DNA from: Aquificaceae bacterium
GTDB lineage: Bacteria > Aquificota > Aquificia > Aquificales > Aquificaceae
Reading direction: 5' to 3'
Length of the DNA: 37,544 nt
Assembly: GCA_037924335.1 (NCBI GenBank)
Contig: JAXSMZ010000011.1
Span: 2,581 to 40,124 of the forward strand
The position numbers and the translations under genes were made by a program. Positions 1 through 20,599 of this stretch are shown one piece after another (position 1 is the stretch's first letter; each line of letters begins with the position of its first letter). Below the pieces are notes generated by a model that searched no databases, was not told the origin of the DNA, and saw only the letters and a list, made by a program, of their open reading frames with translations.

Positions 1-59
1 ACTTAAAAAACGAGGCTGAACATTGGAGCAGAGAGGCAAGCAAGTTAGGTTTCAAACCC

Positions 60-209
60 TTATAGGAACTTAAAAAACGGCTGTGGGAAAGGTGCTTGTA
101 TGGACTTAGAAGCGAGTAAGGAGTTTATATAGTCATCTGCGTATTCTAAGTCTTCTTCTACAACTGCTATTCTTTCTTTTATGTCCGCAAGCTGTGCGTA
201 GTAAGCCAT
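60..209 (-). pseudogene. 3'-truncated ORF, possibly a phage head-tail adaptor (Mu gp36/DUF1320-like N-terminus)
   Basis: Translated by hand: MAYYAQLADIKERIAVVEEDLEYADDYINSLLASKSIQAPFPQP. It then runs into the repeat and stops at TAA 62-60. The MxY..xD...A..YIxxxL....xP..P pattern resembles phage adaptor proteins. Confidence 0.5.
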
Positions 210-256
210 AAGTGTATTATGTGTCTTTACCTACTACGCTTTTGGAAAGTTTTCTA

Positions 257-574
257 TTAGTAGCACTTAACTTCTCTCAGTTGTGCTTCCAGATTTGTTA
301 CATCCGTGTTGACCGTCCCAATTGCAACAAAATCTCTTCTTTCTCTGTTTGCCACATATCTTAGATGTGCTATTGCGTCTCCAACTGTTTGCCCTGATCT
401 GCGTTTTATGAGAAAGTTGATAAACAAGTCCTTGCATTCCTTCCCGCTGTTGTTTTCTACTCTACCCTTGACATTAACAGAAGAGCCAAAGACGCCCACT
501 GACTCCACTCTTACGTCAAACTGTGCGAAGGCTACGGATACAAGCATAAGGCTTGCGATGGCTATGTTTTTCAT
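257..574 (-). CDS. Secreted small beta-sandwich protein, FxLYD-domain-like
   Basis: Signal peptide ending AFA. Pattern V.G.V.N.S.K...L.INF....G..VG.A...L......R.F. Strong RBS AAGGAGG 7 nt upstream and a double stop TAA TAG. Confidence 0.85.
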   Translation of the reverse strand: MKNIAIASLMLVSVAFAQFDVRVESVGVFGSSVNVKGRVENNSGKECKDLFINFLIKRRSGQTVGDAIAHLRYVANRERRDFVAIGTVNTDVTNLEAQLREVKCY

Positions 575-586
575 GGCGCTACCTCC

Positions 587-1015
587 TTACAAGTTTTTTA
601 ACTCCGCAGGCTTATAAACAGCCACAACCCTGCCTATTATTTTACAATCTGAATAAAGCTCTGGTGCATAGTTAGGGTTATCCGCAAAAGCCCACCACTG
701 CCCGCTTATATGTCTTAGTCTTCTTATCTTTATGCCGTTGTCCCCGCAGGCTATAAGGTAAACCGCATTGTCATATAGCTCTGTGTCTTGTCTATCAATT
801 AGCACGTATTCGTCTTCTCGAACAGTTGGCATCATGCTGTCTCCAACGACCTTAAAAGCCTCCACTTTGTAGTGTTTTAGCCTACTCCTTTCTACAAGCA
901 CATGATCTGGTGTGTATCTTACGCCCGCTCCTGCCTCTGTGATAACTGGTATTGCTACAAGCTCTGTAGGAATTAGCTCCTCTTTGGGAAGAAACATCTC
1001 CCCAGTGCCGTATTT
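587..1015 (-). pseudogene. C-terminal peptidase S24 domain of a CI/LexA-like phage repressor, HTH missing
   Basis: AGAG cleavage site, V.GDSM.P motif, ADNPNY and IIGRVV. The frame is open up to the repeat boundary (KYGTGEMFLP, the usual post-HTH linker) and the repeat supplies an in-frame TGA upstream. Confidence 0.88.
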
Positions 1016-1446
1016 GTTTCAAACCCTTATAGGAACTTAAAAAACTTCCAGTCCGCCCAATCATCATCGGAGACCTGAAGTTTCAAACCCTTATAGGAAC
1101 TTAAAAAACCATTTACCACATCCTCGGGTCTGAAAACCTTCAGCTCGTTTCAAACCCTTATAGGAACTTAAAAAACGTTGTGCTTTATGTGTTTTTACCA
1201 AACAATTCAAGTAGTTTCAAACCCTTATAGGAACTTAAAAAACGAATAGTAGAAAGAAAAATCTTTAGAACGTCTAATAACGTTTCAAACCCTTATAGGA
1301 ACTTAAAAAACCTATTTATGTTTACTCTTGCGAAAACCCTTTCCTCCTGTTTCAAACCCTTATAGGAACTTAAAAAACTTTAAGCTCAATATTGCGATAC
1401 TCATCAAGCATACGCTGTTTCAAACCCTTATAGGAACTTAAAAAAC

Positions 1447-1608
1447 CTACCTTTACGTATTCAGTTGCCAAGAACGCGCTGGGCTTGGTATACCCAGTTT
1501 TTCCTTCACTACACATTATTATAATACAGATTCACCCGGCTAAGCTATTTATCTGTCTACCTAGAATCTTGCAGAAAGCGTGGGGGATCCACAGAAAGTA
1601 AGATAGTC
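1447..1608 (-). promoter_or_regulatory. CRISPR leader
   Basis: Non-coding region between the last repeat and the cas2 stop. Minus-strand TATAAT at 1523-1518. Degenerate TCTGTCTACC...GGATCCACAGA inverted pair resembling I-B leader motifs. Confidence 0.8.
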
Positions 1609-1875
1609 CTATATTATAAAATCCTCATGAGACGGACGTTCTGTCCCAATGCTCTGCCTTTGGTAATACTGCTTGGTTCTAAACTTGTATATGAGGACAG
1701 AGTCGTAATTGAGATCAAGAACATCCTCTAATTCTTTTATGAGCTTGAGAAGTTTAGCTTCAGTTAGTTCACCTTCAAAAACTGAGTTTTGCACCCTAGT
1801 TAGATATTTCCTGCATACCTTTAGTGCCTTTCCAACTCTATCCTCTCTTACATCATAGACAAGTATCACAAACAT
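1609..1875 (-). CDS. cas2: CRISPR-associated endoribonuclease Cas2
   Basis: N-terminal VILVYDV, VQNSVFEG motif, 88 aa. Confidence 0.97.
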   Translation of the reverse strand: MFVILVYDVREDRVGKALKVCRKYLTRVQNSVFEGELTEAKLLKLIKELEDVLDLNYDSVLIYKFRTKQYYQRQSIGTERPSHEDFII

Positions 1876-1885
1876 GACTGTAGCC

Positions 1886-2872
1886 TTACCAATTGCTTAT
1901 GAAAGGTTTGTAAGGTTTCTCATCAAGAAGGTGTTTATAAAGCTTATAACACTCTATTCTTATGACACGTCTATATGAAACTTTCCCTACGTTTTTATAC
2001 CTAATCGTGGTTCTAAGTTTTTCTTCAAAAGCGTTAATAAATATCTCTCTCCCTTTTTGATTCAGATAAGCATAATTTACATCCTGTTCAAAGTGCTTGT
2101 TCTGTATCTGACCTTTATTCACAAGAGAAAATATTATTCTGTCCACTATTATAGGCTTGAAAACCTCTGCTATATCCAGATTAAGGCTAAAACTTCGCTG
2201 ATTGGTTTCGTGTAGGAATCCTATCCTCGGGTCAAGATGAGTTTTATAAATTTCACTTAAGACTACCACGTAAAGAAGTGAGTTGCCAAAGGAAAGCATG
2301 GCATTTATAGGATTCATTGGTGGACGTATGGATCGCTTTTCAAATTTGAAACCTTCTAGAAATAGGTCAAAGGCAGAATAGTAAATCTTTCTTATCTCTC
2401 CCTCTAGTTCCATAAGTGACGGTATTGATTTTTCTTTGTCTATATACTTTATAAGGTTCTCTATAGAGACTATAGCATCTTTTAACTGAGAGGTCTTACT
2501 CCTTCTATAGTAATCAAGGTTGCGAAGTATATTATTAGCCCCTCCATAAACGAAAGATTTTGCTAAGTATAGTCGTTTCTCCATATCTAAGTAGTGTTCA
2601 ACTTGCTTTAGTGTTATAATCCCAGAGTTTGTTACTTCTCTTGGATAAAAACTACCCATATAGAAACCGTAGTAATTGAAAAAATGTAGCGGTATACCGT
2701 GTTGATTGAGAAACTCAAGTGCTCTCTTGTTAAGTTCCAATTCACCAAAGACCATCAATTCGCTGACCGCATTAACGGGTATTGCCCTACTACCACTTGA
2801 AGTTGAGAAAAAGAGAGTGTTATCCTTCCTCTCCAGAGTCCCAGAAGTGAACAAATAAAGGGTTCTTTTCAT
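1886..2872 (-). CDS. cas1: CRISPR-associated endonuclease Cas1, type I-B
   Basis: KDNTL, ELEG..R..YY, NAMLSFGN, GFLHE, LDIAEVFKP motifs. Start placed at the MKRTLY ATG after the cas4 stop. Confidence 0.97.
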   Translation of the reverse strand: MKRTLYLFTSGTLERKDNTLFFSTSSGSRAIPVNAVSELMVFGELELNKRALEFLNQHGIPLHFFNYYGFYMGSFYPREVTNSGIITLKQVEHYLDMEKRLYLAKSFVYGGANNILRNLDYYRRSKTSQLKDAIVSIENLIKYIDKEKSIPSLMELEGEIRKIYYSAFDLFLEGFKFEKRSIRPPMNPINAMLSFGNSLLYVVVLSEIYKTHLDPRIGFLHETNQRSFSLNLDIAEVFKPIIVDRIIFSLVNKGQIQNKHFEQDVNYAYLNQKGREIFINAFEEKLRTTIRYKNVGKVSYRRVIRIECYKLYKHLLDEKPYKPFISNW

Positions 2873-2874
2873 GC

Positions 2875-3357
2875 CTAGCACATTTCCTTGTAGGCACAGT
2901 TTCTGCAGTAGAAAATTTTAACAGGTTCTGGAGGTCTTGAAAGGGATATTATGTGTTCTATTCTTCTGAGTATATTTTCAATTTCTCTCTCGTTTTCAGG
3001 AGTAAGCTCAATATTTATAATTCTTTTCTCCGTTGGTACAAGGATCTGACCGACTGCTACAACACCTTTTTCTTTCTTTAGATAGTAAAGGTAATAAAGT
3101 AGTTGTGCCCTTGCACCATCTAAGTTTTTACTACTAGCTTTTACTTCTGCTACCATTCCCTTGCGTTTGACAACGTCTACCTTAATCACACTATCTATGA
3201 GCATCTCCTTTGTATACCTTTCGTAGAATAGCTCGTGAATTGTTCTACCGTATTCAAGCCTTTCGTGTTCTTGAAAAGGTTCAATAGAGTGACCTATAAG
3301 CCACACCTGCCTTTCGCATATTTGGCTATACCAAATCATAGTTCCGTTTATTACCAT
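2875..3357 (-). CDS. cas4: CRISPR-associated exonuclease Cas4
   Basis: C.RQ.W, G..IHE, D...EVK, QL.YY and C-terminal C..C.Y...C Fe-S ligands. Confidence 0.96.
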   Translation of the reverse strand: MVINGTMIWYSQICERQVWLIGHSIEPFQEHERLEYGRTIHELFYERYTKEMLIDSVIKVDVVKRKGMVAEVKASSKNLDGARAQLLYYLYYLKKEKGVVAVGQILVPTEKRIINIELTPENEREIENILRRIEHIISLSRPPEPVKIFYCRNCAYKEMC

Positions 3358-5561
3358 ATCTGCTCATTAAGTTTTCCAGTGAAACCCACTTCCTCGTTAT
3401 ATAATTCTGAACCCGTAACATATATTTTTAACAGTGGGTCTTTCTGTGTGCCTTCTGGCTTTGCGTTTATCACATAGGAGTAAAAAGTGCCCTTTATAGC
3501 TTCAAATTCTCTTTTTGCCTCAAATATGTTCATTTCCCTGTCTTTTAATCTATCTGCTATGTTTCTTGCTTTTTCCAAAATTTCCCGAGCTTTATCGTCT
3601 ACACATACGAACACACTTTCTTTGTATGGTTCATCGTCTATTAAAGTAAAGTCTCTCATGCTATGGAAATTGCATTTTTGGATATGCTTGAGAAGTTCAT
3701 TACTTTCCTCTTGATAAATTCTTTGTTTGATGTCTGAGAAGTATTTTTCAAGTTCCTGCAAGAGTTGGCTCTCTGTGATTTGAGATTTGTTCTTGAGAAA
3801 ATCTTCCGTTGCAGAAAGGAGTATAATATCATATACACTTCTGGCATACTTTCCGTCGTCAAGTCTTATTACAAACACTTTTCCACCTTGTTGACTTTTG
3901 GCGTTTCTGTTAGCTCTGCCTGCTGTCTGGACTATACTATCAAGAGGTGCAAAGTCTCTTATGACCACATCAAAATCAAGGTCTACACCCGCCTCTATAA
4001 GCTGTGTGGATACAACTATCTTGTGTTTACCATCTGCTATTTCTCTTATCCTATACGCCCTGTGAACTGGAACGAGCATGGTAGAAAGATGAACCACACT
4101 AGGAAAATACTTCTTTAGCTCACTGTAAACTTCTCTTGCGGAGGCTATAGTGTTTAGAACTATCAAGTATCGCTTGTCTTGCTCGTATAAATCTTTAAAA
4201 AAGTTCACAAGTGCGTCAAGGGAGTTCACATCAAACCTCACCTCGAGGTTATATCTGTTGACGGATAATCTGAAGTGGTTTACATCTACAATTTCCCATG
4301 AGCTAGGAGTAAAGTATGGCTGAGTTGCGGTCATATACAAGACTTTACAGCTTAGTTCTTGAGTAAGAACTTCTATAGCCTTTCCTACGAGATCCCAGTA
4401 CCTAACAGGCAGTGCTTGAACTTCATCAAGGATTATGAAAGAGTTTCTTAGTCTATCTAATCTCCTTATGTAAGGGTTCTGCCAGGGGAAAATGGTATGG
4501 AAAAGTTGATAGAAAGTGGTAAGTATTATAGGAGCTCTCCAGCCTTCAACTAAAACTCTGAAAAGGTTATGGTCTTCTTCAGAATTCTCTGTGGGATATT
4601 CGGTAAGATGGTGGTGGACTACAAAGTCCTGACCTATCTTAAGCCCAAGCCTTTCTAAGTTTAAACGAACCTGTTCTATGACACTTAGAAAGGGAAGTGC
4701 ATATATTATCCTCGCAGGTTCGTGCTTAAGAGCAAAAGAAAGACCTGTTAGTGTCTTCCCCATGCCAGTAGGCAAGGTCAAAGTAAAAACTCTCCCTTGT
4801 GCTTCACTTGAGAAAACATGCCTGTATGCCTCATCCCTTAACTGCTTTAAAGGAGACTGTAGGTTCTTTGTGTATTCTTCTATGCTATCTGGAGAGAGCG
4901 GAAGGGGCAATTCTTCCAGAACACCTCTCAAGGCTGCGGAGGATTTGTCTGTATCTAAAAGTAGAGAAAACTCTGAAAGCCTACCCCAGAAGTAACCATC
5001 AGGGAAAGAAACAAAAAGAAATCTCTTTTTCATTCTATCAAATAAAGGTTTTCCAGAATTTTTTACCCACTTGAAGAAGTCATTAAGGTCAAAAAGCAGC
5101 TTCTCTTTTAGTTGATCTTCTATATCAAGGAAATCCACGAAGTGTTTGAATTGTTGATAGTCTATGCTTCTGGCTTTTTTAAGCTCTTTTTCTATCTCTC
5201 CCGAATTGAAAAGTCCATTTATACGATCTATATAGTACAAAAGATAATAGCCATGCCCGTCCCAGAAAAGGTCTGAATGATGTCTTTCTACATAAAAGAA
5301 ACTCCAAAAGCAGTCTTCATCCTTCAACTTAAATCTTTCCTTGCATACATAGAGAGTATAAAATGCTGAAAGAAGAGCGTGGGTTGTACGTTTCCCACCA
5401 TTAAGATAGTCTTGAAATTCCTTTGTTGCCTTTCCCATATCATGAAGAACCATCGCAAGAAGAAGATGGAGTGGGATGTCTTGCTTACTTTTCTTAGCAA
5501 TTCTTAGTATACGGTTTACATGGTCATGCATACATACATCAGGATGAGAATAGATACACAT
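3351..5561 (-). CDS. cas3: CRISPR-associated helicase/nuclease Cas3
   Basis: N-terminal HD domain (LHDMGK, HH), LPTGMGKT Walker A, DEVQ, TAT, TQLIEAGVD and QTAGRANR. Confidence 0.97.
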   Translation of the reverse strand: MCIYSHPDVCMHDHVNRILRIAKKSKQDIPLHLLLAMVLHDMGKATKEFQDYLNGGKRTTHALLSAFYTLYVCKERFKLKDEDCFWSFFYVERHHSDLFWDGHGYYLLYYIDRINGLFNSGEIEKELKKARSIDYQQFKHFVDFLDIEDQLKEKLLFDLNDFFKWVKNSGKPLFDRMKKRFLFVSFPDGYFWGRLSEFSLLLDTDKSSAALRGVLEELPLPLSPDSIEEYTKNLQSPLKQLRDEAYRHVFSSEAQGRVFTLTLPTGMGKTLTGLSFALKHEPARIIYALPFLSVIEQVRLNLERLGLKIGQDFVVHHHLTEYPTENSEEDHNLFRVLVEGWRAPIILTTFYQLFHTIFPWQNPYIRRLDRLRNSFIILDEVQALPVRYWDLVGKAIEVLTQELSCKVLYMTATQPYFTPSSWEIVDVNHFRLSVNRYNLEVRFDVNSLDALVNFFKDLYEQDKRYLIVLNTIASAREVYSELKKYFPSVVHLSTMLVPVHRAYRIREIADGKHKIVVSTQLIEAGVDLDFDVVIRDFAPLDSIVQTAGRANRNAKSQQGGKVFVIRLDDGKYARSVYDIILLSATEDFLKNKSQITESQLLQELEKYFSDIKQRIYQEESNELLKHIQKCNFHSMRDFTLIDDEPYKESVFVCVDDKAREILEKARNIADRLKDREMNIFEAKREFEAIKGTFYSYVINAKPEGTQKDPLLKIYVTGSELYNEEVGFTGKLNEQIW

Positions 5562-6213
5562 AGTCTACTCCTACCTTATATATGTTTATAAACTCACCAC
5601 TTAAAGGGTTATCTTTCGTTGTGTAGAAAATATCTATATAGCTGGGGCTTTTTCTGCCTTCCTGAAAGCTAATTGGTATTCTATCTTTGAAAACTGGTCT
5701 TTGCTTTAAGACTTCTATTAGATTAGAGGTGCAATCAGGAGGGAAAACTCCATAGATACAGTCTGATTTTCCCACAAATACAGCTTGTTGAAACCCGATA
5801 GGTTCAAGTCGGGCAGGGTAGGAGGTTTTTCCAAGGTATGGATGGTAATGGCTTTTGCCTTCCTGAACCATATCAGCAAATGTCTCAAACAGATCACCTT
5901 GACCACATAGGTGTATTCTGTAAGAGGGATTAATGAGAACTTGTCTGTTTGCTTGTGTGCGGACGAGTTTTTTAGGGTCTTTAATATTTAGAAGGTTTAA
6001 GCCTAAAAACATCTTTCCTTCCACCCTCTCTATCACGATACCTATATTAAATTCGCTTGTAGTCTTTATGTAATCCTCACAGCCTACTACAGCGGCGATA
6101 AGCCCCCTTATAGTTGTCGGTGGTGGAAAATCATAACTTAGGGCGGACGCAGTTGTGTAAAACTTTCTAAAGTGTCCAAGCCTTCCACTAAGCCTAAAAG
6201 AAAAGCACTTCAT
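5539..6213 (-). CDS. cas5: Cas5, type I-B
   Basis: GHFRK, SY.FPPPTT.RG, PYLG motifs and operon position. Confidence 0.95.
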   Translation of the reverse strand: MKCFSFRLSGRLGHFRKFYTTASALSYDFPPPTTIRGLIAAVVGCEDYIKTTSEFNIGIVIERVEGKMFLGLNLLNIKDPKKLVRTQANRQVLINPSYRIHLCGQGDLFETFADMVQEGKSHYHPYLGKTSYPARLEPIGFQQAVFVGKSDCIYGVFPPDCTSNLIEVLKQRPVFKDRIPISFQEGRKSPSYIDIFYTTKDNPLSGEFINIYKVGVDYVYLFSS

Positions 6214-7184
6214 TTTGTCAGATTAAACTTCTCAAGGGGCAAACCTTGAAAAGTATTCTCTAAAGGCTCTGATAGTCGTAACATAGGGTCAATCTGATAT
6301 ATCACCTTCTGTATATCTCTCTTAACCCCTTCAAGCTTATTTTTCATTGCAGAAAGGTCAAGGATAAACTCAGAAACATTCCTTATAGCTTTTTCCTCAA
6401 GCCCTTCGTCAGGAATGAGTTTAATGAAACTTATAAGGTCCCCAAGAGAGTATAGAGTGTTTTCTTGAAAAACAATGTCAATCAGAAGTTTAGGTGAATG
6501 TCCAAGCTTACTGGTGGTTTCAATAGTACTTGCACTCATATGCCCATACCACAAGGCTTTAAAGAAAAGTTCTATATCCTTTTCACTTAAGCCAGTTTTC
6601 GTTGCATTCTTGTCATTCACTACCCCATAAGTCCCTATGAAAGCGTAAGGCACTTTGTATTCTTCTGTGAAAGTCCCCACAGTCTTGCCTTCACCAGATG
6701 GCATCTCAGTAGTCCCTTTGATAAAAACCACATCCACTTTATGAAGAGACTCTCCCCATGCAATCTGCACAGGTCCCACAAAAGAAAAGGCTTTTTGTTC
6801 TTCTTTTGACTCTTCTGTATTCCCTGAACCTTTCTTCTTCTCTTTACCTCCCACCGCAAAGACACCACCAAAAAGTCGTATGTCCACGTACTTTTCCAAC
6901 ACGTACTTTTCCAACGGCATTTTAGGATCACCAATTTCTTTGCCAATTTCTTTTAACTTCTCATCCTTGGTTTTGAGGGTGCCATCTTCGTTTTGTTCTG
7001 CCTTTATGAATACTTGATGACCAAACTGCTCTAAGGCATCCCTCACCGTCCTCTTTATCCTATCGTCGGACACAAGAATTCTCTCTCTTATCTTATCTTG
7101 TCTTGGTTGGTTGTCCGCTAAAGGGTCTCCATTAGGATTTGCCCACCTAACATCGTAAAAAAAGAAAAATTCATGTCTCTTCAT
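6210..7184 (-). CDS. cas7: Cas7/Csh2, type I-B
   Basis: ANPNGDP..DN.PR, DIRLFG and GPVQ motifs. GGAGG upstream of ATG 7184. Confidence 0.96.
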   Translation of the reverse strand: MKRHEFFFFYDVRWANPNGDPLADNQPRQDKIRERILVSDDRIKRTVRDALEQFGHQVFIKAEQNEDGTLKTKDEKLKEIGKEIGDPKMPLEKYVLEKYVDIRLFGGVFAVGGKEKKKGSGNTEESKEEQKAFSFVGPVQIAWGESLHKVDVVFIKGTTEMPSGEGKTVGTFTEEYKVPYAFIGTYGVVNDKNATKTGLSEKDIELFFKALWYGHMSASTIETTSKLGHSPKLLIDIVFQENTLYSLGDLISFIKLIPDEGLEEKAIRNVSEFILDLSAMKNKLEGVKRDIQKVIYQIDPMLRLSEPLENTFQGLPLEKFNLTK

Positions 7185-7572
7185 CTTGCTCACCTCCAGA
7201 CTTAAGATTCTTACCTATTCCATAGCCGACACAAAGGGCAGTGTTTATGTCATCTCTCTTTTTCCCTCTACCCTCAAACCCCAGTCTTTTTATAGCCTTA
7301 GCATACAGGGTATAGAATTTTTCACCAAGATTGTATTTAGTAGCCTTGTTCATTAGCTCTCTCATTAACTCTTCTACCCCACGCCAATCAAGGCTAAACT
7401 CCCTAAAAAGAAGGTAAAGGTTGGGTGTGTATCCTTTTGCGTATTGAACCTTTTCCACATAAGCGACAAGAAAGCCCAAAAGGGCAAGTCCTACAAGAAC
7501 TTCGTCCTCTTTAAAGTATTTTCTAAAAAAGTCCTCAGGATTTTCTTCTTCTAACTTGTTAAACTCTGCCAT
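7171..7572 (-). CDS. cas11: Putative Cas11 small subunit translated from an internal start in cas8b (133 aa)
   Basis: In-frame ATG at 7572 preceded by GGAGG at 8-nt spacing. Helical C-terminal region. Confidence 0.65.
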   Translation of the reverse strand: MAEFNKLEEENPEDFFRKYFKEDEVLVGLALLGFLVAYVEKVQYAKGYTPNLYLLFREFSLDWRGVEELMRELMNKATKYNLGEKFYTLYAKAIKRLGFEGRGKKRDDINTALCVGYGIGKNLKSGGEQDEET

Positions 7573-8799
7573 GTTCTTTCCCTCCATAGCTTTTTTTATG
7601 AAAAGATATGAAACAACAAAATCATAGCATAAATATTTAAGATTATTGTTCTGGATTTTTCTAAACCCAGAAAGCAATATGCCTGATGGTTCTACTTTTT
7701 CCCCAAGAAAACTTGCCCTCAAGAGAGCAAAAAAACTATCTCTATCTGGTGTTAGTCTCCGTATGGTTTTGTATGAAAACTTTTCCCCAAGCGTGAATTT
7801 CTCTTCTATTTCTCTTTTCAGTTTATAAAGATAACCAAGTCTTGATGGAAATATGTCTTCAATTGAGTGAAGTATTCTTATAGCATTTTGATTTCTCTCT
7901 AAATAAAGAAGCAATACACGAAGATCATCCTCAATCCCAGATTTTTCTCTAATATATTCATTAATGTCTTCAGGATCTATATTCCCAGCTCCTAAATATG
8001 ACTTTCTTGATGTATCGTCTTTGAGAACTTCCACCAGCTCTTCTATCTTCTGCACGTTCCCTTCTGGAATAAAAAGATATTCAAAGCCCGCCATGCTGAA
8101 TTTAAACCATAGACCTGCAGCCTCAACTCCTTTCTTAACAGTTTCAAGGCAATCTGCACATGCAGGCATATGTCTGTAAGCAAGCCCTTTATCAATGTAA
8201 GGAGCATAAGCAGGGTTGTCAACCGTATAAACAGTAATGGGGAAATAATCTCCTATTACTTTCTTTTTTTGAAAGCATAGAGAACATATTCCTTCTCCTC
8301 CTTTTCTTTCTTTCTCATACCACCTTCTGATAAGATTTTCTACCTTTTCCACTACCTCTTGTATCTCACCCAAATATTTATCGTCTATTTTTATAGTAAT
8401 CAAAATCTGGTGTGCTTTATTTAAGTCTTTTACCTTCATCTTTAGGTCCTCTTTGATTTCGTCCATACTACCCTCAAGGGGCTTTCCAAACAACTGCTCT
8501 GCTGATGAGAATAGCCATTCTAGTGTTTTAGGTTTCTTCTCAGATAGCTCCTTTTTTAGCTTATCCTTTGCTTTAACTATGGTAGGCGTAAAGCCAGGGG
8601 TATTCTTTGAATTCCCCCTTTTCGCATATAGGTATTTCCATTGTTCCTCATTTTTGAAATCTTCCAGCCTAAGATCTATATAGTTTAGGTTCTTGCCGAA
8701 ACGTAAAGTAAAAACTATATCAATACCACTTAATAAGTCCCTTGCTCTTAAACCCTTATTCTCAGCTACTTTTCCAAGATCTAGAAAAGCCCTCAACAT
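7171..8799 (-). CDS. cas8b: Cas8b/Csh1 large subunit (TM1802-like)
   Basis: Two CxxC pairs (CSLC, CADC), I.DIFPSR motif, position between cas6 and cas7. Confidence 0.9.
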   Translation of the reverse strand: MLRAFLDLGKVAENKGLRARDLLSGIDIVFTLRFGKNLNYIDLRLEDFKNEEQWKYLYAKRGNSKNTPGFTPTIVKAKDKLKKELSEKKPKTLEWLFSSAEQLFGKPLEGSMDEIKEDLKMKVKDLNKAHQILITIKIDDKYLGEIQEVVEKVENLIRRWYEKERKGGEGICSLCFQKKKVIGDYFPITVYTVDNPAYAPYIDKGLAYRHMPACADCLETVKKGVEAAGLWFKFSMAGFEYLFIPEGNVQKIEELVEVLKDDTSRKSYLGAGNIDPEDINEYIREKSGIEDDLRVLLLYLERNQNAIRILHSIEDIFPSRLGYLYKLKREIEEKFTLGEKFSYKTIRRLTPDRDSFFALLRASFLGEKVEPSGILLSGFRKIQNNNLKYLCYDFVVSYLFIKKAMEGKNMAEFNKLEEENPEDFFRKYFKEDEVLVGLALLGFLVAYVEKVQYAKGYTPNLYLLFREFSLDWRGVEELMRELMNKATKYNLGEKFYTLYAKAIKRLGFEGRGKKRDDINTALCVGYGIGKNLKSGGEQDEET

Positions 8800-9524
8800 G
8801 GTTCAACCATCCCAAAGCCTGCACTGTTTTTTACACCAAGTCCTGCGTAAAGAGCTATGCACATCATGTCCTCCCCTGTTCTTATATTATACGTTCCCTC
8901 CCAGGCTTCTACAAGTGTTCCCTTAAAAACAACCTTCTTTCTGTAGCTATTTTCTATCTTGACAGGACTTATCTCTATCCCACCCTCATACTTTTTTCCA
9001 TACACTAGGTGATATTTCTTCAAAAGGTTGGACTTAAGGAGCTTATAAAAATCCTCTTGATAGGGTGTGAAGTATTCAAACCTTTTACTGCCAGCTGGAG
9101 TCCTGTAAACAGTTATAGGAGATAGACATCGCACAGAGACCTCTTTTTGAGGATTGTATTCTCTTGCGTGTATTTGCGAGAGGAAAACGTAGTTACTTCC
9201 AAGCTTTAGGCTCTGTTTTTTTAGAACTTCCTTTAATAAACTCTCGGTGAGTTTAAGAAAGGGGGAGGCAAAATGTATAACAAGAGGTGGTATAAGCTTT
9301 AAAATATCGCCCCTTTTTTCTAGTGAACTGTATCCAATTTTTGAGAAGGTAAAAAGCTTAAATTTCCTTCCTTCATATATGAATCCAGACTGGTGCAGAA
9401 ATTCTGAGAGAAGCCTGTCTATGTTCGCATAGAAAAACCCTTGAAGCACATGATTGTATGACTTTGGAAGAATAACCGGTCTGTCAGAGTCCAAAGTCAA
9501 CGTAAGAACTGCTCCCTTTCTCAT
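8793..9524 (-). CDS. cas6: CRISPR-associated endoribonuclease Cas6
   Basis: FKLFTFS, LSPI and C-terminal G-rich loop GLGVKNSAGFG. Confidence 0.97.
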   Translation of the reverse strand: MRKGAVLTLTLDSDRPVILPKSYNHVLQGFFYANIDRLLSEFLHQSGFIYEGRKFKLFTFSKIGYSSLEKRGDILKLIPPLVIHFASPFLKLTESLLKEVLKKQSLKLGSNYVFLSQIHAREYNPQKEVSVRCLSPITVYRTPAGSKRFEYFTPYQEDFYKLLKSNLLKKYHLVYGKKYEGGIEISPVKIENSYRKKVVFKGTLVEAWEGTYNIRTGEDMMCIALYAGLGVKNSAGFGMVEPC

Positions 9525-13367: not shown

Positions 13368-14078
13368 TCAATAATTATAAACTTTTTTCCTGAAGAATAC
13401 CTTATGAAAAACATAAATACCAGAAAGGGCAAATCCTATAAAGCTTATGAAGAAGATATAAGGTCTTAATTTCTCCAAAAGGCTTTCTCTGCCCATGGCA
13501 TACTGGAGCGCCGCCTTTATGTCTTCCTTTGCAAAAACCACACCGTACAGATACTTTTTTATCTTCATCTCCGCTGAAGTAAACACTAAAAGGTTTGGAT
13601 GGACAAAATCCCTGCTTTCAGGCATGCTCATAAACCTGAAGTCTATGGCATCCATAAGCCTAAAGATGTCTTCTTTGTTTACTGCTACAGCTACGATCCA
13701 TCCCTTACCGTCTATGTTATGTTCCCTTTGAAACCTTTGAATATCTTTTATTGTATCCTTGGGGTCAAAGGAAAAACTCAAAACCCAGAAATCCCTGCCC
13801 GGTTCACCAAGCTTATAAACAACCTCTTTGATGGAGTGTGTTATTAAAGGGCAGGCAGACTGGCAATGAGTGTATATGGGGCTAAGGATCAAAGGCTTAC
13901 CTTTGAGCTCATAAAGATAAAAGGTTTTACCGTTGGAGTCCATAAGTTTCACATTGGGAAGGTAATTTCCCAAAGTCCTCGATTCATCCGGTGGTATCCC
14001 AGTGCCTTGAGAGTAAACGTATGTGAAAAAAAGAAAGAGGGGGATAAACCCCAAAAAGAAGCGCACGAGGGAACACAT
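13368..14078 (-). CDS. SCO/SenC copper chaperone for the ba3 oxidase
   Basis: YTHCQSACP CxxxC motif, SFDP, FVHP His and C-terminal TM helix. Confidence 0.92.
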   Translation of the reverse strand: MCSLVRFFLGFIPLFLFFTYVYSQGTGIPPDESRTLGNYLPNVKLMDSNGKTFYLYELKGKPLILSPIYTHCQSACPLITHSIKEVVYKLGEPGRDFWVLSFSFDPKDTIKDIQRFQREHNIDGKGWIVAVAVNKEDIFRLMDAIDFRFMSMPESRDFVHPNLLVFTSAEMKIKKYLYGVVFAKEDIKAALQYAMGRESLLEKLRPYIFFISFIGFALSGIYVFHKVFFRKKVYNY

Positions 14079-14079
14079 G

Positions 14080-15822
14080 TCACTCTACTTTTGCAGTTTC
14101 TTTACTTTTCTCCTTGCTACTTTGAGGTTTTGTTATGGGAACAGGATTTTTGTCGTTGTAGCCAGGAGAATCAAAGAAGACACCCCTTTTTGTTACATCG
14201 TAAAGGGCTGGTATGTAAGATATAACGAATAGTAAAATGCTGACAGCAAACCAAGGGGTGAGGCGGTTCAAGGCTGGTGCCTTCTCATCATGTAGGGCTT
14301 CGGCATTAGGTAGCTCCAAAATATCTTCCCTTACCCTAGGAGAAAGAAGCGTGGAAAAGAAAGATACTGCAAAGAATATAAAGCCAAGCACTATAACAAA
14401 GGCGGCAAAAGCTGAAAGCTCTGCATACCCTACCCATTCAGGTCTGTAGAGTGGAGATTCAGGGTTGAGGTAAGATATACCAGCGTTTGTTCTTCTTGGA
14501 AAGCCATGCATACCCGCAACGGACATAGCGTACTCAAATATGAGCATACCCTGCCACCATAGCCAAGGTGCTAAAACAGCAAGACCTTTAAACCTTATCT
14601 CTTTACCCATAAGCTTGGACACCAGATAGAGGGATATACCCAAGAGGGAGAGCGTAACAAGTCCACCCACTGTTGTATGAAAGTGTCCAGGTACAAAGCT
14701 CGTATTGTGAACAACAAGGTTCATGTTGTAAGATGCGTTTACTATTCCAGTTATGCCACCTACAAAGAAGAGTAAAAGCCCTGCCATAAAGTAGGAGACA
14801 AGCCATTTATCCCCCTCTAAGCTTATGTAAGGTATCCTTGCCCACCAGTAGAAGAGAGAATTCTTCACCTCTGGATATTTGGATTTTATGGAGTACTCAA
14901 GGGATGCGGCAACGGTGAAGGCTGTTAGAATGCTAGGAACAGCCACACCAAAGGTAAAGAGAGCATGTATGAGCTTGTAGTTGTTTGTTATGCCTGGTTC
15001 TGTGAACTGATGGTGAAGACCAACTGGAAAAGAAAAGATGATGAACAGAATGAAGGCAAACCTTGCAGCACTGTCTGAATAAAGCTTACCATCACCCGTC
15101 ACAATTTTAGGAAGTATGGTGTAGAGCATTGTGTAAGCTGGAAGGAGCCAAAAGTAGACAAGAGGATGACCAAAGGCCCAAAAGAGTGTCCTGCTCAAAG
15201 CTGGATTAACTTCGCTTATTAGACCCAAGGACAAGGGTATCATCTGAAAGACTACTGTTATAACAACAGGAACCAGCATTATCACCCACATGATATGGTT
15301 TACAAAAACGCCGAAAACAGCAAGAGGAACTTTTTCTCCTGGATGTTCCCTTCTCCAAGATATATAGTTGGGCGTCCAATCAAGGAAGAGAGGAACTATA
15401 GAACCAACAAGCAAAAGAGCTGCACCTATGTAAAAGAAGGGATGCGCTACCAAGGGAAGATAAAAGGTGTAAAGTACATTAGCCTTTCCTGCGAACATGG
15501 CCCATGCAGCCATCAGAGTTCCCACAACCATCATAAGAAAGCTTATCCACTGCACTGCAGGTCTTAAGGGCTTTTTCAGATGATAGAGGAATACCGCATT
15601 GCCAAAGGCCACTATAACCATAGTGGTAAAAACTACAGCATTTATAACCCCATGAAGCGTGAGCCCTTGGTAGTACTCTATACCACCAACGGACATCTCT
15701 TTTATGATACCAGCCCTGTACAGAGCTTGCATAAGCCCATGGTAGATACCAAACACCAAAAGAAGTATAGGAATAACTATCTCACCTATGATGACCCATC
15801 TGATGCTACCGCTTACTTTCAT
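14080..15822 (-). CDS. cbaA: B-family (ba3-type) cytochrome c oxidase subunit I
   Basis: YYQGLTLHG, FGHPLVY, GLHH, GHFH and PRR motifs. Confidence 0.95.
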   Translation of the reverse strand: MKVSGSIRWVIIGEIVIPILLLVFGIYHGLMQALYRAGIIKEMSVGGIEYYQGLTLHGVINAVVFTTMVIVAFGNAVFLYHLKKPLRPAVQWISFLMMVVGTLMAAWAMFAGKANVLYTFYLPLVAHPFFYIGAALLLVGSIVPLFLDWTPNYISWRREHPGEKVPLAVFGVFVNHIMWVIMLVPVVITVVFQMIPLSLGLISEVNPALSRTLFWAFGHPLVYFWLLPAYTMLYTILPKIVTGDGKLYSDSAARFAFILFIIFSFPVGLHHQFTEPGITNNYKLIHALFTFGVAVPSILTAFTVAASLEYSIKSKYPEVKNSLFYWWARIPYISLEGDKWLVSYFMAGLLLFFVGGITGIVNASYNMNLVVHNTSFVPGHFHTTVGGLVTLSLLGISLYLVSKLMGKEIRFKGLAVLAPWLWWQGMLIFEYAMSVAGMHGFPRRTNAGISYLNPESPLYRPEWVGYAELSAFAAFVIVLGFIFFAVSFFSTLLSPRVREDILELPNAEALHDEKAPALNRLTPWFAVSILLFVISYIPALYDVTKRGVFFDSPGYNDKNPVPITKPQSSKEKSKETAKVE

Positions 15823-16271
15823 TTTTGTTCACCTCCCTTTACAAGGATCTTGGTAGTCATATCCTGGTGCCCTATACCACAGTACTCGTGGCATACTATG
15901 TGATAAACACCAGGCTTGTCAAACCTCACCCTTGCATAGGTTACAGAGCCAGGAACAGCCATAAGGTTTACGTTTGTACCGTCTATTTGGAAGCCGTGTA
16001 TCACATCACCGCTTGTAAGGTATATATCCACCGTTGAGCCAACAGGAATTTCTACATCGGTAGGTTCAAAGTACCACATTTTAGCAAGGTAGTGGATCTC
16101 ATACCTGTCCGGTGCATGCTGGATCACCTGCCCCTGGGTGAAGGGTTTTACATCCGTTATGCATGTGGGGATGTCGATGTTCAAGCCCTTTGCCGCATAC
16201 ACCAAAAGACCAAAGAAGAAGCCAAGAAAAACTACCGCAGTGATAAAAGCACTCTTCTCTGCTCTATCCAT
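15819..16271 (-). CDS. cbaB: ba3-type oxidase subunit II (CuA)
   Basis: Single TM helix, DVIHGF and CHEYCGIGHQDM. Confidence 0.95.
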   Translation of the reverse strand: MDRAEKSAFITAVVFLGFFFGLLVYAAKGLNIDIPTCITDVKPFTQGQVIQHAPDRYEIHYLAKMWYFEPTDVEIPVGSTVDIYLTSGDVIHGFQIDGTNVNLMAVPGSVTYARVRFDKPGVYHIVCHEYCGIGHQDMTTKILVKGGEQK

Positions 16272-16274
16272 GGT

Positions 16275-16391
16275 TTACCCCCTTGCTAAAAGCGTAAGGT
16301 AAATGGACACCCATACAAGAGCATAGAAGGCAAGCATAAACACTAAGAAAGCTACGGCTCCTTTAGGAAAGAACTCCTCGTGACCTTCCAT
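16275..16391 (-). CDS. ba3-type oxidase subunit IIa (38 aa; absent from ORF track)
   Basis: MEGHEEFFPKGAVAFLVFMLAFYALVWVSIYLTLLARG with PKGA...W...Y.....RG signature and AAGGAGG RBS. Confidence 0.92.
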   Translation of the reverse strand: MEGHEEFFPKGAVAFLVFMLAFYALVWVSIYLTLLARG

Positions 16392-16442
16392 GTGGCACCT
16401 CCTTAATTATTTCAGCTTATAAAAATATAAGCTGTACTTATA

Positions 16443-16471
16443 ATTATATTCACATATATATAATTTGTCAA
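16443..16471 (-). promoter_or_regulatory. Sigma70 promoter of the ba3 operon
   Basis: Exact TTGACA (16471-16466), 17 nt, TATAAT (16448-16443). Confidence 0.85.
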
Positions 16472-16554
16472 TAACTTTCAAATAAGTATTATTCCATTAC
16501 CTAGTTTTCATACTATAAAATCTTTTTAACGTGTTTATACTTAGGGGACTTTAC

Positions 16555-16717
16555 GAAACATCCACAAGAAGGTTCTCCTTTTCAAAGGAGAGATGAATTG
16601 TGATAAAATAATAACACATAAATCTGTCTGGCATAGGCAGTTCTCTATGCCCTACAGTTGGACCGACGGGAAGTTAAGCCCTGAGAAAGGGAAGCTCCTT
16701 ATAGGAGAGGAGGTCAC
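16555..16717 (+). mobile_element. Non-autonomous IS200/IS605-type MITE (163 bp)
   Basis: TTAC at 16551-16554, left-end hairpin TCTCCTTT-TC-AAAGGAGA (16574-16591) followed by GATGAA, right-end hairpin CTCCT-TAT-AGGAG (16695-16707) and terminal TCAC. Confidence 0.72.
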
Positions 16718-17234
16718 TGATTAAGTTCTATCCACTTTTTTTCGCCTTTTTTGTACACTCTCTCTATCTTTTTGATTCTGAGTCTTCTTAGGTTTACATA
16801 AGCTTGGAAATCCTCTAAGAACCTTTTTAAATGTTCACAAGAATCAAAATAAAGAAGTTCATCCCCTTCTTTAGCAACGCAGTAATCATCCTCCTTTTTT
16901 ACAAAGGCACTACACACTGGACACCTTGTACCATCGGGTGGTTGAGGGGGTGGCAAAAACCTCTTTTCCCTTTTTTCCATAAAGGCATAAAAGGCTACAC
17001 TAAGCACAAGAATAAAGGCAAAGGATTCAAAGGCAAAAGAGTATTGAGTAGAAAAGGCTTTTGTAAAAAATTTATTACGGATGCAAATATACCGATAAGT
17101 GTGATACTGGCAACTATAAAGATATATCTGACGGGAATACCTTTAAAAACAAAGAGCAAGATAACACCAAAGCTGAGCATCTCAAAAACTCTTGATAGGA
17201 TAATAAGGATATGGGGAGCTACAGATGTATCCAT
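16714..17234 (-). CDS. Membrane protein with C-terminal YHS/TRASH-like metal-binding domain, split by a -1 frameshift near 17065-17070
   Basis: ORFs 16995-17234 and 16714-17007 join into one protein (…VINFFTKAFSTQYSFAFESFAFILVLSVAFY…CPVC…YFDSCEH) with a single -1 shift in a T6 run. Confidence 0.7.
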
Positions 17235-17411
17235 TTACTTTTTCTTTTCTGGAATTATGAAAGGTTTACTTCTTATGTTTTTCAATCTATCTATGAAGTA
17301 TTCTCTGTTCTTTTCTGAGAAGACCATGCTTAAAAATCCAAGCAAAAAGCCAGCCAATACTATCAACCCAAGCACTATCCCAAACAATTTGGTTTTTGTC
17401 TCTTCTCTCAT
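17235..17411 (-). CDS. Small single-TM hypothetical protein (58 aa; absent from ORF track)
   Basis: MREETKTKLFGIVLGLIVLAGFLLGFLSMVFSEKNREYFIDRLKNIRSKPFIIPEKKK. Its TAA abuts the next ATG. Confidence 0.75.
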   Translation of the reverse strand: MREETKTKLFGIVLGLIVLAGFLLGFLSMVFSEKNREYFIDRLKNIRSKPFIIPEKKK

Positions 17412-17419
17412 AGTTCTTT

Positions 17420-17440
17420 AAAAAGCCCCCAAAAGGGGGC
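17420..17440 (-). terminator. Rho-independent terminator after coxA
   Basis: GCCCCC-TTTT-GGGGGC hairpin followed by a T run on the minus strand, 7 nt after the stop. Confidence 0.8.
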
Positions 17441-17447
17441 ATATGTT

Positions 17448-19091
17448 TCATACATGGGTATGATAGCCCTTGTAGAAAGCGTATGGATGCCAATCCTCCG
17501 GAACTTCTACAGGTGTCTTTTTGAAGTTGTGTGGACCTACAGGTGTATCCGTCATAGACCATTCGAGGGATGGAGATTTCCATGGATTGTTCTCTGCCTT
17601 TGGACCACCAAGGCTCTTTATCCAGTTTATCAGAGAGAGAAGAACACCAACACCGAGTATAAGAGCCCCTACTGTTTGTATCTGATTCAATGTCACCCAT
17701 GCAGGTATGGGTGGATAATCGGCATACCTTCTCGGCTCTCCAAGGAAACCAACAGCCATCTGTAAGAAATAGAATATGTTAGCACCTATGAGCATAAGCC
17801 AGAAGCTCAGTTTCCCAAGTCCTTCTGAGTACATCCTCCCTGTAACCTTTGGATACCAGTAGTAAATACCACTGAAAGCGGCAAAGGTCAAAGCCATTCC
17901 AAGAACATAGTGAAAGTGCCCAACTATTGCCATAGAATCGGATATACCAAGGTCTATAGAAACCATTGCGTTTGGAATACCAGTAAGCCCACCTATAAGG
18001 AACATGAGTATTCCACCAAAGGTAAAGATCATGGGCGTGTTGTACCTTATAGCCGATTTGTGAAGTGTGGCAACCCAGTTAAATATCTTTATACCAGTAG
18101 GGACACCGACGAGCACAGTGGTATAAGAGAACAGTACCCTTGCCCAGTCTGGTACACCAGAAACAAACATATGATGTACCCATGTTTCAAAGCCTATTAA
18201 GGCTATGGCATATATAGCTATTGCCATGGATATGTATCCAAATATGGGTTTCCTTGCCATGGTTGCAATGACTTCTGAGAACACACCGAAGGCTGGAAGT
18301 ATCATGACGTACACAGCTGGGTGAGAGTAAAACCAGAAGATGTTTTGGTAGATAAGAGGGTCTCCCCCCAGAGCTGGGTTGAAGTAGTTCATGTGGAAGT
18401 ATTTATCAAGGAGAAGGAGGTTCACTGAACCAAGAAGAGCAGGAACTCCAAAGAGCTGTATGAGATTGGTAGCTAATATGGCATGAACAAAGAGGTTTAA
18501 GTTGGTCCATCCTATACCCTTTGCCCTCATCCTTATTATTGTTGTTATGAAGTTCACTGATCCAGCCGTTGCAGATACACCATAGAGGTTAACTATTAAC
18601 GAATAAAGCGCCGTAGGTCCTGCGTTATCGTTGAGCGAATATGGTGGATATCCTGTCCAAAGCATCTTTATCCAGTTTCCAGGTATAAGGGTAAGAAGGA
18701 CCAAAAGGCTTGCACCTAAAAATGCCCAGTAGCTGAAGGCGTTTAGCCTTGGGAAGGCAACATCCTTTGCCCCTATCATAAGGGGTACGAGAAAGTTAGA
18801 GAAGGCACCCGTCCATATAACAACGGCCCACCACAGGAGCATCACCGCACCATGCCCTGTAAGAAGGTAATTGTAAAGGTCTGCACCCTCCTGACCAAAG
18901 AGTGCCGGCATCTGTATACCTGGCTGTGTTAGCTCAAGCCTTATGAGCACGCCGAATAGTCCAGCAACAATAAAGAAGACAAGAGATGTTACAAAGTAGA
19001 GCATTCCTATCTTTTTGTGGTCAGTTGTAAAGATCCACTCCTTTAGAGTTGCTCCGTACCATGTTCCGCTTGGTGCATGTACTACAGCCAT
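17448..19091 (-). CDS. coxA: A-family (A2-type) cytochrome c oxidase subunit I
   Basis: TTDHKKIG, DVAFPRLN, WFYSHPAVY (YS motif of type A2), WVHHMF, HFHYV and PRRY. Confidence 0.96.
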   Translation of the reverse strand: MAVVHAPSGTWYGATLKEWIFTTDHKKIGMLYFVTSLVFFIVAGLFGVLIRLELTQPGIQMPALFGQEGADLYNYLLTGHGAVMLLWWAVVIWTGAFSNFLVPLMIGAKDVAFPRLNAFSYWAFLGASLLVLLTLIPGNWIKMLWTGYPPYSLNDNAGPTALYSLIVNLYGVSATAGSVNFITTIIRMRAKGIGWTNLNLFVHAILATNLIQLFGVPALLGSVNLLLLDKYFHMNYFNPALGGDPLIYQNIFWFYSHPAVYVMILPAFGVFSEVIATMARKPIFGYISMAIAIYAIALIGFETWVHHMFVSGVPDWARVLFSYTTVLVGVPTGIKIFNWVATLHKSAIRYNTPMIFTFGGILMFLIGGLTGIPNAMVSIDLGISDSMAIVGHFHYVLGMALTFAAFSGIYYWYPKVTGRMYSEGLGKLSFWLMLIGANIFYFLQMAVGFLGEPRRYADYPPIPAWVTLNQIQTVGALILGVGVLLSLINWIKSLGGPKAENNPWKSPSLEWSMTDTPVGPHNFKKTPVEVPEDWHPYAFYKGYHTHV

Positions 19092-19103
19092 GATTACACC
19101 TCC

Positions 19104-19829
19104 TTACTGTTGAATTGGTTGTTCTTTGGTTGCTCCAGAGCCAAGCCATGCGTTAAATTCAGACTCAGGAACAACCTTAAGAGTGGCAAACATACGAGAA
19201 TGCCATGTGCCGCAAAACTCCCTGCAGAGCACGTAGTACTCTCCTGGCTTGTTTATCTGAAACCAAAGATGGGTTATCCTACCTGGAACTGCGTCCTCAG
19301 TTATCATAGCTGGCAGTACAAAGAAGGAATGTATCACATCCCTTGACGTAAGTATAACTTTTATGGGTTTACCAGCAGGTATGTAAGCCTTTTGCTCTTC
19401 CGAAGCTGTGTATCCCTGTGGATTGAAGAAGGAGTAAACTTTCTTTCCGTTGGGATATTCAAACTCCCATCCCCACATGAAACCTACCACTTTTATCTCC
19501 ATGGATCCTTCTGGTGCATTTCTCTGTTTGACAAAGTTAGCAAAAGAGTACGTAGCCAAGAAAAGAACAAGAATCGTAGGAATAACAGTCCAGACAACTT
19601 CAACGGCTGTATTGCCCTCTATGTGCTCTCCCTCTTCGTGTACTCCAGCTCTGTACTTGTACTTGATCATAAAGTATATGGCGGGTATAGCAACGATTAT
19701 GTATATAGCAACAGCTACCGCGAGCCATACATTAAAAGAGTTCTCCCAGTAAGCCCTGGGATAAGCTAGCACTTCCTCTGAGAAGGCACTTCCTGCAATT
19801 AAAAACAAAAGAGCAAAGATATTTCTCAT
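19104..19829 (-). CDS. coxB: Cytochrome c oxidase subunit II
   Basis: EVVWTVIP, W.WEFEY, DVIHSF and CREFCGTWHSRM CuA site. Confidence 0.96.
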   Translation of the reverse strand: MRNIFALLFLIAGSAFSEEVLAYPRAYWENSFNVWLAVAVAIYIIVAIPAIYFMIKYKYRAGVHEEGEHIEGNTAVEVVWTVIPTILVLFLATYSFANFVKQRNAPEGSMEIKVVGFMWGWEFEYPNGKKVYSFFNPQGYTASEEQKAYIPAGKPIKVILTSRDVIHSFFVLPAMITEDAVPGRITHLWFQINKPGEYYVLCREFCGTWHSRMFATLKVVPESEFNAWLGSGATKEQPIQQ

Positions 19830-20599
19830 GTTTTGACCCCCTTTTTAGGTTTTAGAAAAGCATAAGCAAGGGTAAGACTTACAAGTCCAAAGCCCACAAG
19901 CCCAAAGAAAATGGTTGGATTCGTTCTGTACGTTCCAGTGTTTGGGTCGTACCTATAGCATGCCAGAAAGGCAAGGTCAACAAGAGAATTTTTTGTGACC
20001 TTTGAATCGTTTGCCTCTGCAAGAGCAAGGCTCATATCCCTCTCCTTTGGACTAATGCCGTAAATGTACCTTACTATCTCTCCCTTTGGTGATAGGAAAG
20101 TTACAACGTTTGGATGGACAAAAACTCTGTCCCTATGGGAGTAGAAGAATCTAAAACCTATGGAAGATGTGAGTCTCTTTATATCCTCCTCTTTCATTAT
20201 TCCAAAGGTCCAGTTGGGTGGAACGTCACCAATCTTAGATCTGAATGCCTTTAAACTTTCAAGGGTATCGTATCTATCAAAAGAAAGAACAAGCACTCTG
20301 TAGTCTCTGTTTATACTCCTTGAGGCCCTCAGAGTACCCCTTACCACAAGAGGACAGGCAGAATCGCACGTGTAGTAGGCAAGTATGAGAGCTGTAGGCT
20401 TTCCTTTTATAAACTCTCTGAGCTTGTGGCTCTTCCCTTGCTCATCGATGAAAGGAACGTCTGCCACGTAATTACCTAAATGCTTAGCCTCGTCTATCTT
20501 GAGTATGGAGGCATCGAAAAAGCTTGGACCTTCTTCACTCCTTATTCCTGGCATGCCATAGACAAGAGCAAAGAGGAAAAGGACAAGCAGTGTTAACAT
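19826..20599 (-). CDS. SCO family protein
   Basis: YYTCDSACP, FVHP, CYRYDP and C-terminal TM helix. Confidence 0.9.
   Translation of the reverse strand: MLTLLVLFLFALVYGMPGIRSEEGPSFFDASILKIDEAKHLGNYVADVPFIDEQGKSHKLREFIKGKPTALILAYYTCDSACPLVVRGTLRASRSINRDYRVLVLSFDRYDTLESLKAFRSKIGDVPPNWTFGIMKEEDIKRLTSSIGFRFFYSHRDRVFVHPNVVTFLSPKGEIVRYIYGISPKERDMSLALAEANDSKVTKNSLVDLAFLACYRYDPNTGTYRTNPTIFFGLVGFGLVSLTLAYAFLKPKKGVKT

Follow-up and report, generated by a model that had tools for sequence, protein, structure and literature searches.

A CRISPR array of an Aquificaceae bacterium holds, in the position of a single spacer, a 937-bp fragment of a Mu-like phage. The fragment occupies positions 79..1015 (minus strand) of the window, by which we mean the whole stretch of 37,544 nucleotides that was analysed (G000:C11:2581-40124), and it lies between two perfect repeats of a type I-B1 locus. 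It belongs to a rare known kind of element, the pseudo-spacer, and we conclude with fair confidence that it is real. The explanation that we favour, to which we give about an even chance, is that the insert is a real chromosomal pseudo-spacer formed when Cas4-Cas1-Cas2 integrated a long fragment that had escaped trimming. In addition, three further gene-sized inserts in the same family, one of them in a single-contig genome, are described here as new.

All features of the array and of the cas locus are given for the minus strand. The contig carries nine copies of one 30-nt repeat, eight of which are perfect and lie within the window, and the intervals between the copies are 204, 937, 34, 37, 37, 38, 37 and 38 nt. 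In agreement with the first-pass annotation of this DNA, the 937 bp are flanked exactly by the perfect repeats at 49..78 (leader-distal) and 1016..1045 (leader-proximal), and six ordinary spacers of 34, 37, 37, 38, 37 and 38 nt, with six repeats, are located on the leader side (1046..1446). Repeat mapping places one ordinary 37-nt spacer on the trailer side (12..48), next to a partial repeat (1..11) that borders a 10-N scaffold gap in front of the window. The 204-nt interval is thus composed of 146 bp, the 10-N gap, part of a repeat and this 37-nt spacer. The earlier statement that all other spacers measure 34-38 bp holds within the window but not just upstream of it, where at least 146 bp of phage-like DNA follow the trailer repeat. 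This upstream stretch (G000:C11:2425-2570; L001:1345-1490), which runs into the gap, is 74% alike to a small gene that the G017 Mu-like prophage carries at its left edge, and is either a second overlong interval or a misjoin; exact contigs leave it uncovered in all four sequencing runs described below, an absence that is uninformative by the coverage rule.

The leader is located between cas2 and the first repeat (1447..1608) and the sole degenerate repeat is found at the far, trailer end, and the array is therefore probably read on the minus strand. Full-length cas2, cas1 and cas4 (1609..3357) are accompanied by cas3, cas5, cas7, cas8b1 (TM1802 family) and cas6, which make up a type I-B interference module (3351..9524). 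Each of the eight genes matches its own Pfam family, as expected for type I-B1, the match of the Cas3 HD domain being weak (E 0.03). A dead Cas4 as the cause of the insert receives no support from the sequence; the protein is full length and retains four cysteines (14, 151, 154 and 160). One CRISPR repeat family occurs in 18 of the 90 genomes of the host's family, its carriers being Thermocrinis, Hydrogenobacter and Aquificaceae. Further along the window (13368-22608) there are, judged from ORF translations only, two adjacent heme-copper oxidase-like gene clusters with SCO-like genes. Like a canonical spacer the insert has a whole, identical repeat on either side; its length of 937 bp, however, compares with about 34-40 nt for a canonical spacer and with 32-50 nt for 686 spacers of relatives, a departure not attributable to chance.

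The insert contains three ORFs, all on the minus strand. It had been described as carrying genes, which is correct for one whole ORF of 105 aa, whereas the other two are truncated, and both ends do cut through ORFs as had been proposed. At the leader-side end, a cI-like repressor gene is open at 1015: positions 587..1015 encode its C-terminal S24 domain (PF00717) without the Helix-Turn-Helix (HTH), with an in-frame start at residue 68 of 210. This part is 90% identical at the amino acid level to a full 210-aa repressor on metagenome contig L050, in which the HTH corresponds to residues 14-67, so that the insert starts directly after it. At the other end (79..209), the repeat cuts a gene for a Mu gp36-like head-tail adaptor, of which 43 codons out of about 114, corresponding to the initial third of Mu gp36, are kept; this part shows 96% nucleotide identity to the full 114-aa gene in G106:C56, a PF07030 match. 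Homology to phage runs to the very first base of the insert (96%, G106:C56) and to base 937 (88%, L050). The insert is, then, a gene-sized, collinear fragment of a mobile element between perfect repeats without extra bases, as in the archaeal pseudo-spacer SiL-E1 discussed below. The proposal of a phage genome fragment is thereby supported and can be narrowed by homology to the Mu-like family, the fragment being joined cleanly to two intact repeats. Likewise in line with the earlier reading, no transposase, integrase or terminal inverted repeat is present, and the insert lacks the features by which a self-bounded mobile element such as an IS, MITE or prophage is recognised (transposase or integrase, terminal repeats and a split target).

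The intact 105-aa ORF (257..574) occupies an accessory (moron-type) slot behind the repressor, as judged from the fact that the gene in the middle differs in every relative examined. A strong Shine-Dalgarno site is located 6 nt upstream of it, and the start of the predicted protein resembles a signal peptide, which may point to a secreted type. No Pfam or PHROG family matched it; searches of two protein libraries returned only the protein itself and no distant homolog, and a single-sequence structure model (pLDDT 55) gave no fold match. Its Atlas neighbours are unnamed at 0.92, and the named ones, at 0.85 or below, are leads only. Variants with 97% and 94% identity are present on other public contigs of up to 9,078 bp, and the gene therefore probably exists outside arrays too. 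A scan of the insert for a promoter or terminator gave nothing above shuffled sequences.

Relatives of the donor include a prophage on G106:C17 with phrog_310, phrog_296 and PF09299 (weak), and the related prophages encode a DDE transposase, an AAA transposition protein, a terminase and a RecT/Bet protein. Arrays of other hosts contain ordinary spacers that match the insert at window positions 626-661 and 705-740, indicating that its phage circulates and is targeted. Two spacers of the window's own array (1110-1146 and 1177-1213) also match Mu-like prophages of relatives. Scans of viral contigs with the repressor and with the 105-aa ORF yielded nothing useful, that with gp36 yielded one weak 1.2-kb match, and a distant blastn search of cultured phages did not recover the donor phage genome or anything else of use; a metagenome scan for the donor produced one 3.7-kb relative. 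The insert was unmatched in 60 other genomes searched for the same array, in which repeats or cas2 only were found. Elsewhere in the host genome there are pieces of a Mu-like prophage, namely G000:C21:1-2300, where capsid-region genes 93% alike to the G017 prophage are joined to host genes, and G000:C8:52371-52467, where a prophage right end 98% alike to the G017 prophage lies at the contig end; the middle of this prophage is absent from the assembly.

A survey of arrays in relatives covered 196 overlapping repeat loci, leaving aside N-containing intervals and 95 loci on viral contigs, and had flanks of 1.5-2.5 kb, which limit the size of insert that can be seen. The viral loci were single matches from repeat scans, treated as chance, and none concerned the window's repeat. 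Besides the 686 distinct ordinary spacers (32-50 nt), ten other intervals were found, of which eight exceed 50 nt. A search for repeat-flanked inserts above 200 bp had been suggested, and it did return further gene-sized cases: four intervals are longer than 800 bp, those of the window (937 bp), G106 (1,323 bp), G026 (836 bp) and G024 (1,342 bp). Each of the four contains a complete ORF that is oriented with the array transcript, an arrangement with a chance of 1 in 16 (one-sided, post hoc). A 444-bp interval was discarded as a leader and a 290-bp interval because its repeats are of another type. Shorter overlong intervals of 139 bp (G004:C57; L062:1230-1368) and 274 bp (L230) are located near trailer ends.

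The repressor had a match in 16 of 148 genomes searched. One of these led to G106:C56:8738-10060 (L037), from another genus, where repeats of another family enclose 1,323 bp of the phage locus represented in the window; this piece carries a different, whole 199-aa accessory gene together with a whole gp36, and is known from contig data of a fragmented assembly. As this case was found by searching with the window's repressor, we do not count the capture of the same phage locus twice as independent evidence. Both phage inserts are located near the trailer end of their array. An ordinary G017 spacer matches the accessory gene on G106:C56 perfectly, with PAM CCG.

The other two inserts are not of phage type. 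In the single-contig genome G026 (C1:1306650-1307620; L053:2170-3114), a whole gene of 836 bp lies between repeats: the leader and a repeat are followed by 20 nt that contain a TATAAT box, then by a variant repeat, the insert and another repeat; in four sister genomes the same flanks enclose ordinary arrays, with 4-16 repeats. The array copy is the only copy of this gene found in G026. Its product, which has no Pfam match, reads as possibly outer-membrane-like. The same gene is present without repeats in G086, and the insert covers it from the base at which transcription is predicted to start, behind a -35/-10 pair, up to where a terminator hairpin ends, so that its ends look as if derived from an mRNA. 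An RNA origin by way of a reverse transcriptase was rejected, PF00078 not being found in any of the five genomes searched. On G024:C5 (L292:5410-6811), the order is leader, repeat, 1,342 bp, repeat; this insert (34% GC, non-phage) would encode a cytochrome c peroxidase-like protein with a promoter of its own, judging from the sequence. In the sister genome G113, that leader is followed by one repeat only. In another single-contig genome (G005:C1:1122610-1124900; L058), an array contains several duplicated spacer blocks, a sign of repeat-mediated recombination in these arrays.

The ends of the inserts were compared with PAMs. Outside the leader-side end, beyond 1015, the flank is CTA in three of four alignable phage relatives and CTC in the fourth, and it is also CTA in the phage of sequencing run X1. 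The PAM of a Thermotoga I-B1 system is given as YYD (PMC13199841), and the flanks of the matched spacers of the window's own array are TTG, CTT, TTA and TTA. A check for a PAM beyond 1015 had been suggested: this end is PAM-compatible in the relatives, whose CTA fits YYD as well as the flanks of the array's own spacers, but the chance of this at a single position is 0.22 and the relatives differ from the donor by 7-12%. For the G106 insert, the leader-side end falls at a Pro codon (CCN) in three of three relatives (single-position chance 0.05); among 16 matched spacers of the G106-type repeat family CCN is the commonest PAM (9), and CYN accounts for 15. The corresponding flank of the G026 insert is CAT, which is not a PAM. 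PAM-like triplets are also present inside the leader-distal ends at about one spacer length: TTA at 38 nt in the window (117..119), CCN at 35-37 nt in G106 and TTA at 37 nt in G024. The chance of such an internal triplet is 0.43-0.62 for the repeat family of the window, making the TTA at 117..119 a weak signal, and 0.18 for CCN; no internal PAM at spacer distance was present in the 139- and 274-bp intervals. Together, these observations suggest, modestly, that the ends of the insert were made by Cas proteins. We dropped the idea that the first base of the next repeat derives from the PAM, since among 16 family-A spacers it held for 4, and in three of these the base was simply G. Within arrays of the G106-type family (L059, L060, L062 and L064), blocks of repeats differ in their first base (G, A or C), and the PAM offers no explanation for this.

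We favour capture by Cas4-Cas1-Cas2, whose steps beyond the junctions, the phage origin and the intact cas genes are what we infer. In type I-C, Cas4-Cas1-Cas2 is described as integrating the non-PAM end first, with Cas4 acting slowly at the PAM (10.1101/2022.05.30.494039). In the array studied here, the non-PAM end of a long phage fragment would likewise have been integrated first, Cas4 would have failed to cut at the PAM about 38 nt further in, and the far end would have been trimmed at a second PAM and then joined across the repeat. The repeat would thus have been duplicated around 937 bp rather than 37, and six later spacers would have moved the insert towards the trailer. On transcription of the array, Cas6 would be expected to free the RNA of the insert as one long piece, from which the 105-aa ORF might be translated. 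Direct integration, which would also account for non-phage inserts beside a leader, is favoured by the G024 locus, in which a leader and repeat are followed by 1,342 bp of non-phage DNA and another repeat, against the single repeat of G113, as no prior spacers are needed for it. What counts against it is the lack of a PAM at the leader-side end of the G026 insert, and our literature search found no report of full-site integration of a kilobase fragment by Cas1-Cas2 in cells.

The main alternative, possible but less likely, is a double crossover in which two old spacers (about 79-116 and 979-1015) recombined with the phage by means of a single-strand annealing protein, the intervening phage sequence replacing the units between them. 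Such recombination between two spacers predicts the same end geometry as direct integration, and it is in keeping with the PAM-like triplets that lie inwards of the distal ends by 38 nt in the window and by 35-37 nt in G106. In agreement with this route, the phage relatives encode RecT/Bet proteins (PF03837, E 1e-28 and 1e-24), two of the seven ordinary spacers of the window's array match the same phage family, and both phage inserts lie near the trailer end. Recombination between spacers and phages by promiscuous phage recombinases has been reported (Varble et al. 2019, as cited in 10.1101/2020.10.09.333658), and resembles the present case in combining spacer-phage homology with phage recombinases, of which the donor family encodes RecT; as cited there, however, the outcome is the movement of CRISPR loci by transduction and not a stable gene-sized insert in a spacer slot. 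The route has also been named for SiL-E1 (PMC3718332). Against it, neither end of the insert was found as an ordinary spacer among the 686 spacers of relatives, and no break occurs in the contigs at the points where such spacers would be expected to branch off, with no joints among those listed. The crRNA of the distal spacer would, moreover, be expected to target the new chromosomal copy with its PAM and so cause a brief autoimmunity, and such a crossover does not readily account for the inserts that adjoin the leader in G024 and G026, which are not of phage type.

The 10-N gap and the second phage-like stretch beside the array first raised the suspicion of an assembly chimera, in which a walk from spacer to protospacer entered a co-occurring phage or prophage and left it through a second spacer. 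Twenty sequencing runs hold part of window positions 1-1700, and four of these were examined, as assembled contigs; 14 runs with small word shares, as well as X5 and X6, were left out of the junction evidence. X1-X3 belong to one study, and one of them may be the source sample of the assembly. A junction was taken as bridged when a contig held 31 letters on each side. By this rule the right junction alone is bridged, by a 553-bp contig of X2 that runs from the insert through the whole right repeat and one further base (31 letters past the junction) with no differences. Across the left junction, one 613-bp contig of X1 joins 29 nt of the repeat to 584 nt of the insert and a 614-bp contig of X3 runs from 30 letters of the repeat into the insert, both again with no differences. 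These 29-30 letters are about the maximum, since the contigs, presumably built from words of 31 letters, reach here into a shared 30-nt repeat. Three pieces from X2, likewise with no differences, together cover the whole insert, and no piece runs across all of it. No joints were found at the junctions among those listed, neither a continuation of the phage at 79 nor a branch from spacer to repeat.

Comparing the coverage of the insert with that of the chromosome had also been suggested, and on contigs it came out at about chromosome depth, unlike that of a co-occurring abundant phage. The left-junction contig has a depth of 17.3 in X1 (19.7 at cas1) and of 6.78 in X3 (5.93 at cas1), and the right-junction contig of X2 has a depth of 4.47 (against 5.8); the insert-to-chromosome ratios in the four runs are 0.88, 0.78, 1.14 and 0.46, contig depth not being a copy number. 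A phage 93% alike is present at depths of 94 (X1) and 70 (X3), where it takes the place of the right part of the insert. This phage would offer material for a chimera, as would the partly assembled Mu-like prophage of the host (C21 start, C8 end); furthermore, the genome is fragmented (39 contigs, with the 10-N gap beside the array), the upstream stretch of at least 146 bp that enters the gap has no exact contig cover in the four runs, and the G106 case also comes from a fragmented assembly. A chimera is nevertheless improbable. Among the pieces listed of a second assembly, made for three samples, the junctions are crossed by single contigs without branches; in depth the insert tracks the chromosome rather than the abundant phage; the repressor region of the G017-type prophage is a different one; and a gene-sized insert is present between repeats in single-contig G026. 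Checks on reads are needed all the same, because spacer-to-phage chimeras look identical to real inserts.

Mu-like phages insert at many sites, and the host has a Mu-type end elsewhere, which would suit the entry into the array of a Mu-like prophage, or of other DNA, that was larger at first and was then pared down by deletion, or a Cas-independent illegitimate joining. Although phages that integrate into repeats are known as well (10.1101/2020.10.09.333658), such an origin is unlikely, as both repeats are complete and unsplit, the ends of the insert are internal phage sequence and neither Mu ends nor att sites, an integrase is lacking, and deletions would have had to stop exactly at both repeat borders.

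The closest known case is SiL-E1, a pseudo-spacer of about 2 kb of conjugative plasmid in CRISPR_2 of Sulfolobus islandicus LAL14/1 (PMC3718332). As described there, it resembles the window insert in that a kilobase piece of a mobile element sits between a pair of identical repeats and precedes ordinary units without unaccounted bases at the borders, and in that direct integration and spacer recombination were both left open, as here. SiL-E1 is plasmid DNA in an archaeon, whereas the array of the window is bacterial, of type I-B1, and its 937-bp insert stems from a Mu-like phage; beyond what is known of SiL-E1, the present case has the support of independent contigs and of ends compatible with a PAM, and it has three companions in the family. 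Locus F of S. solfataricus contains an 899-bp pNOB8-like fragment between repeats (PMC4390879); this is likewise foreign DNA between two repeats and of similar size, but archaeal and of plasmid origin, and its size is reported as near a whole number of units. The window insert shows no such fit, since 937 bp plus one repeat correspond to 14.4 units of 67 bp. Phage DNA is also found inside an array in the case of prophage phiAP1.1 (10.1101/2020.10.09.333658), which, however, is given as a whole prophage with an integrase that uses the repeat as attB, whereas the window holds an internal fragment without integrase between whole repeats. Our literature search, which extended to few subscription journals, revealed no pseudo-spacer in a bacterial I-B array or in Aquificaceae. 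The first-pass annotation had likened the array to an integron. An integron consists of intI, attI and excisable cassettes bounded by attC. The likeness lies in a whole ORF that has a ribosome site but no promoter of its own, is oriented behind a promoter of the host and is bounded by repeated sites; unlike in integrons, the ends of the insert cut through genes, the borders are CRISPR repeats, and neither stacking nor excision of cassettes was seen.

The sense orientation of the 105-aa ORF and its Shine-Dalgarno site make storage of a gene in the array possible. Extended to the four loci, the idea is that leader-plus-repeat sites serve as points of gene capture, where Cas1-Cas2 occasionally inserts gene-sized DNA and whole ORFs in sense orientation are kept through their expression. 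We put this forward tentatively and consider it rather unlikely; the presence of a whole sense ORF in all four inserts above 800 bp keeps it alive. The examples would be two phage accessory genes, possibly for superinfection exclusion, the peroxidase-like gene and the outer-membrane-like gene. The repressor domain without HTH might, in addition, poison the repressor of an incoming phage.

The origin of kilobase pseudo-spacers was left open when SiL-E1 was described (PMC3718332). The two routes proposed for them can now be distinguished, because there are testable end signatures, a PAM outside the leader-side end and a PAM one spacer length inside the other end, and a donor family with RecT. 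Array-calling tools split or discard such loci. If the inserts are expressed and selected, Cas1-Cas2 would integrate gene-sized DNA in nature, and CRISPR arrays, besides their role as a memory, would offer a path by which genes are gained horizontally.
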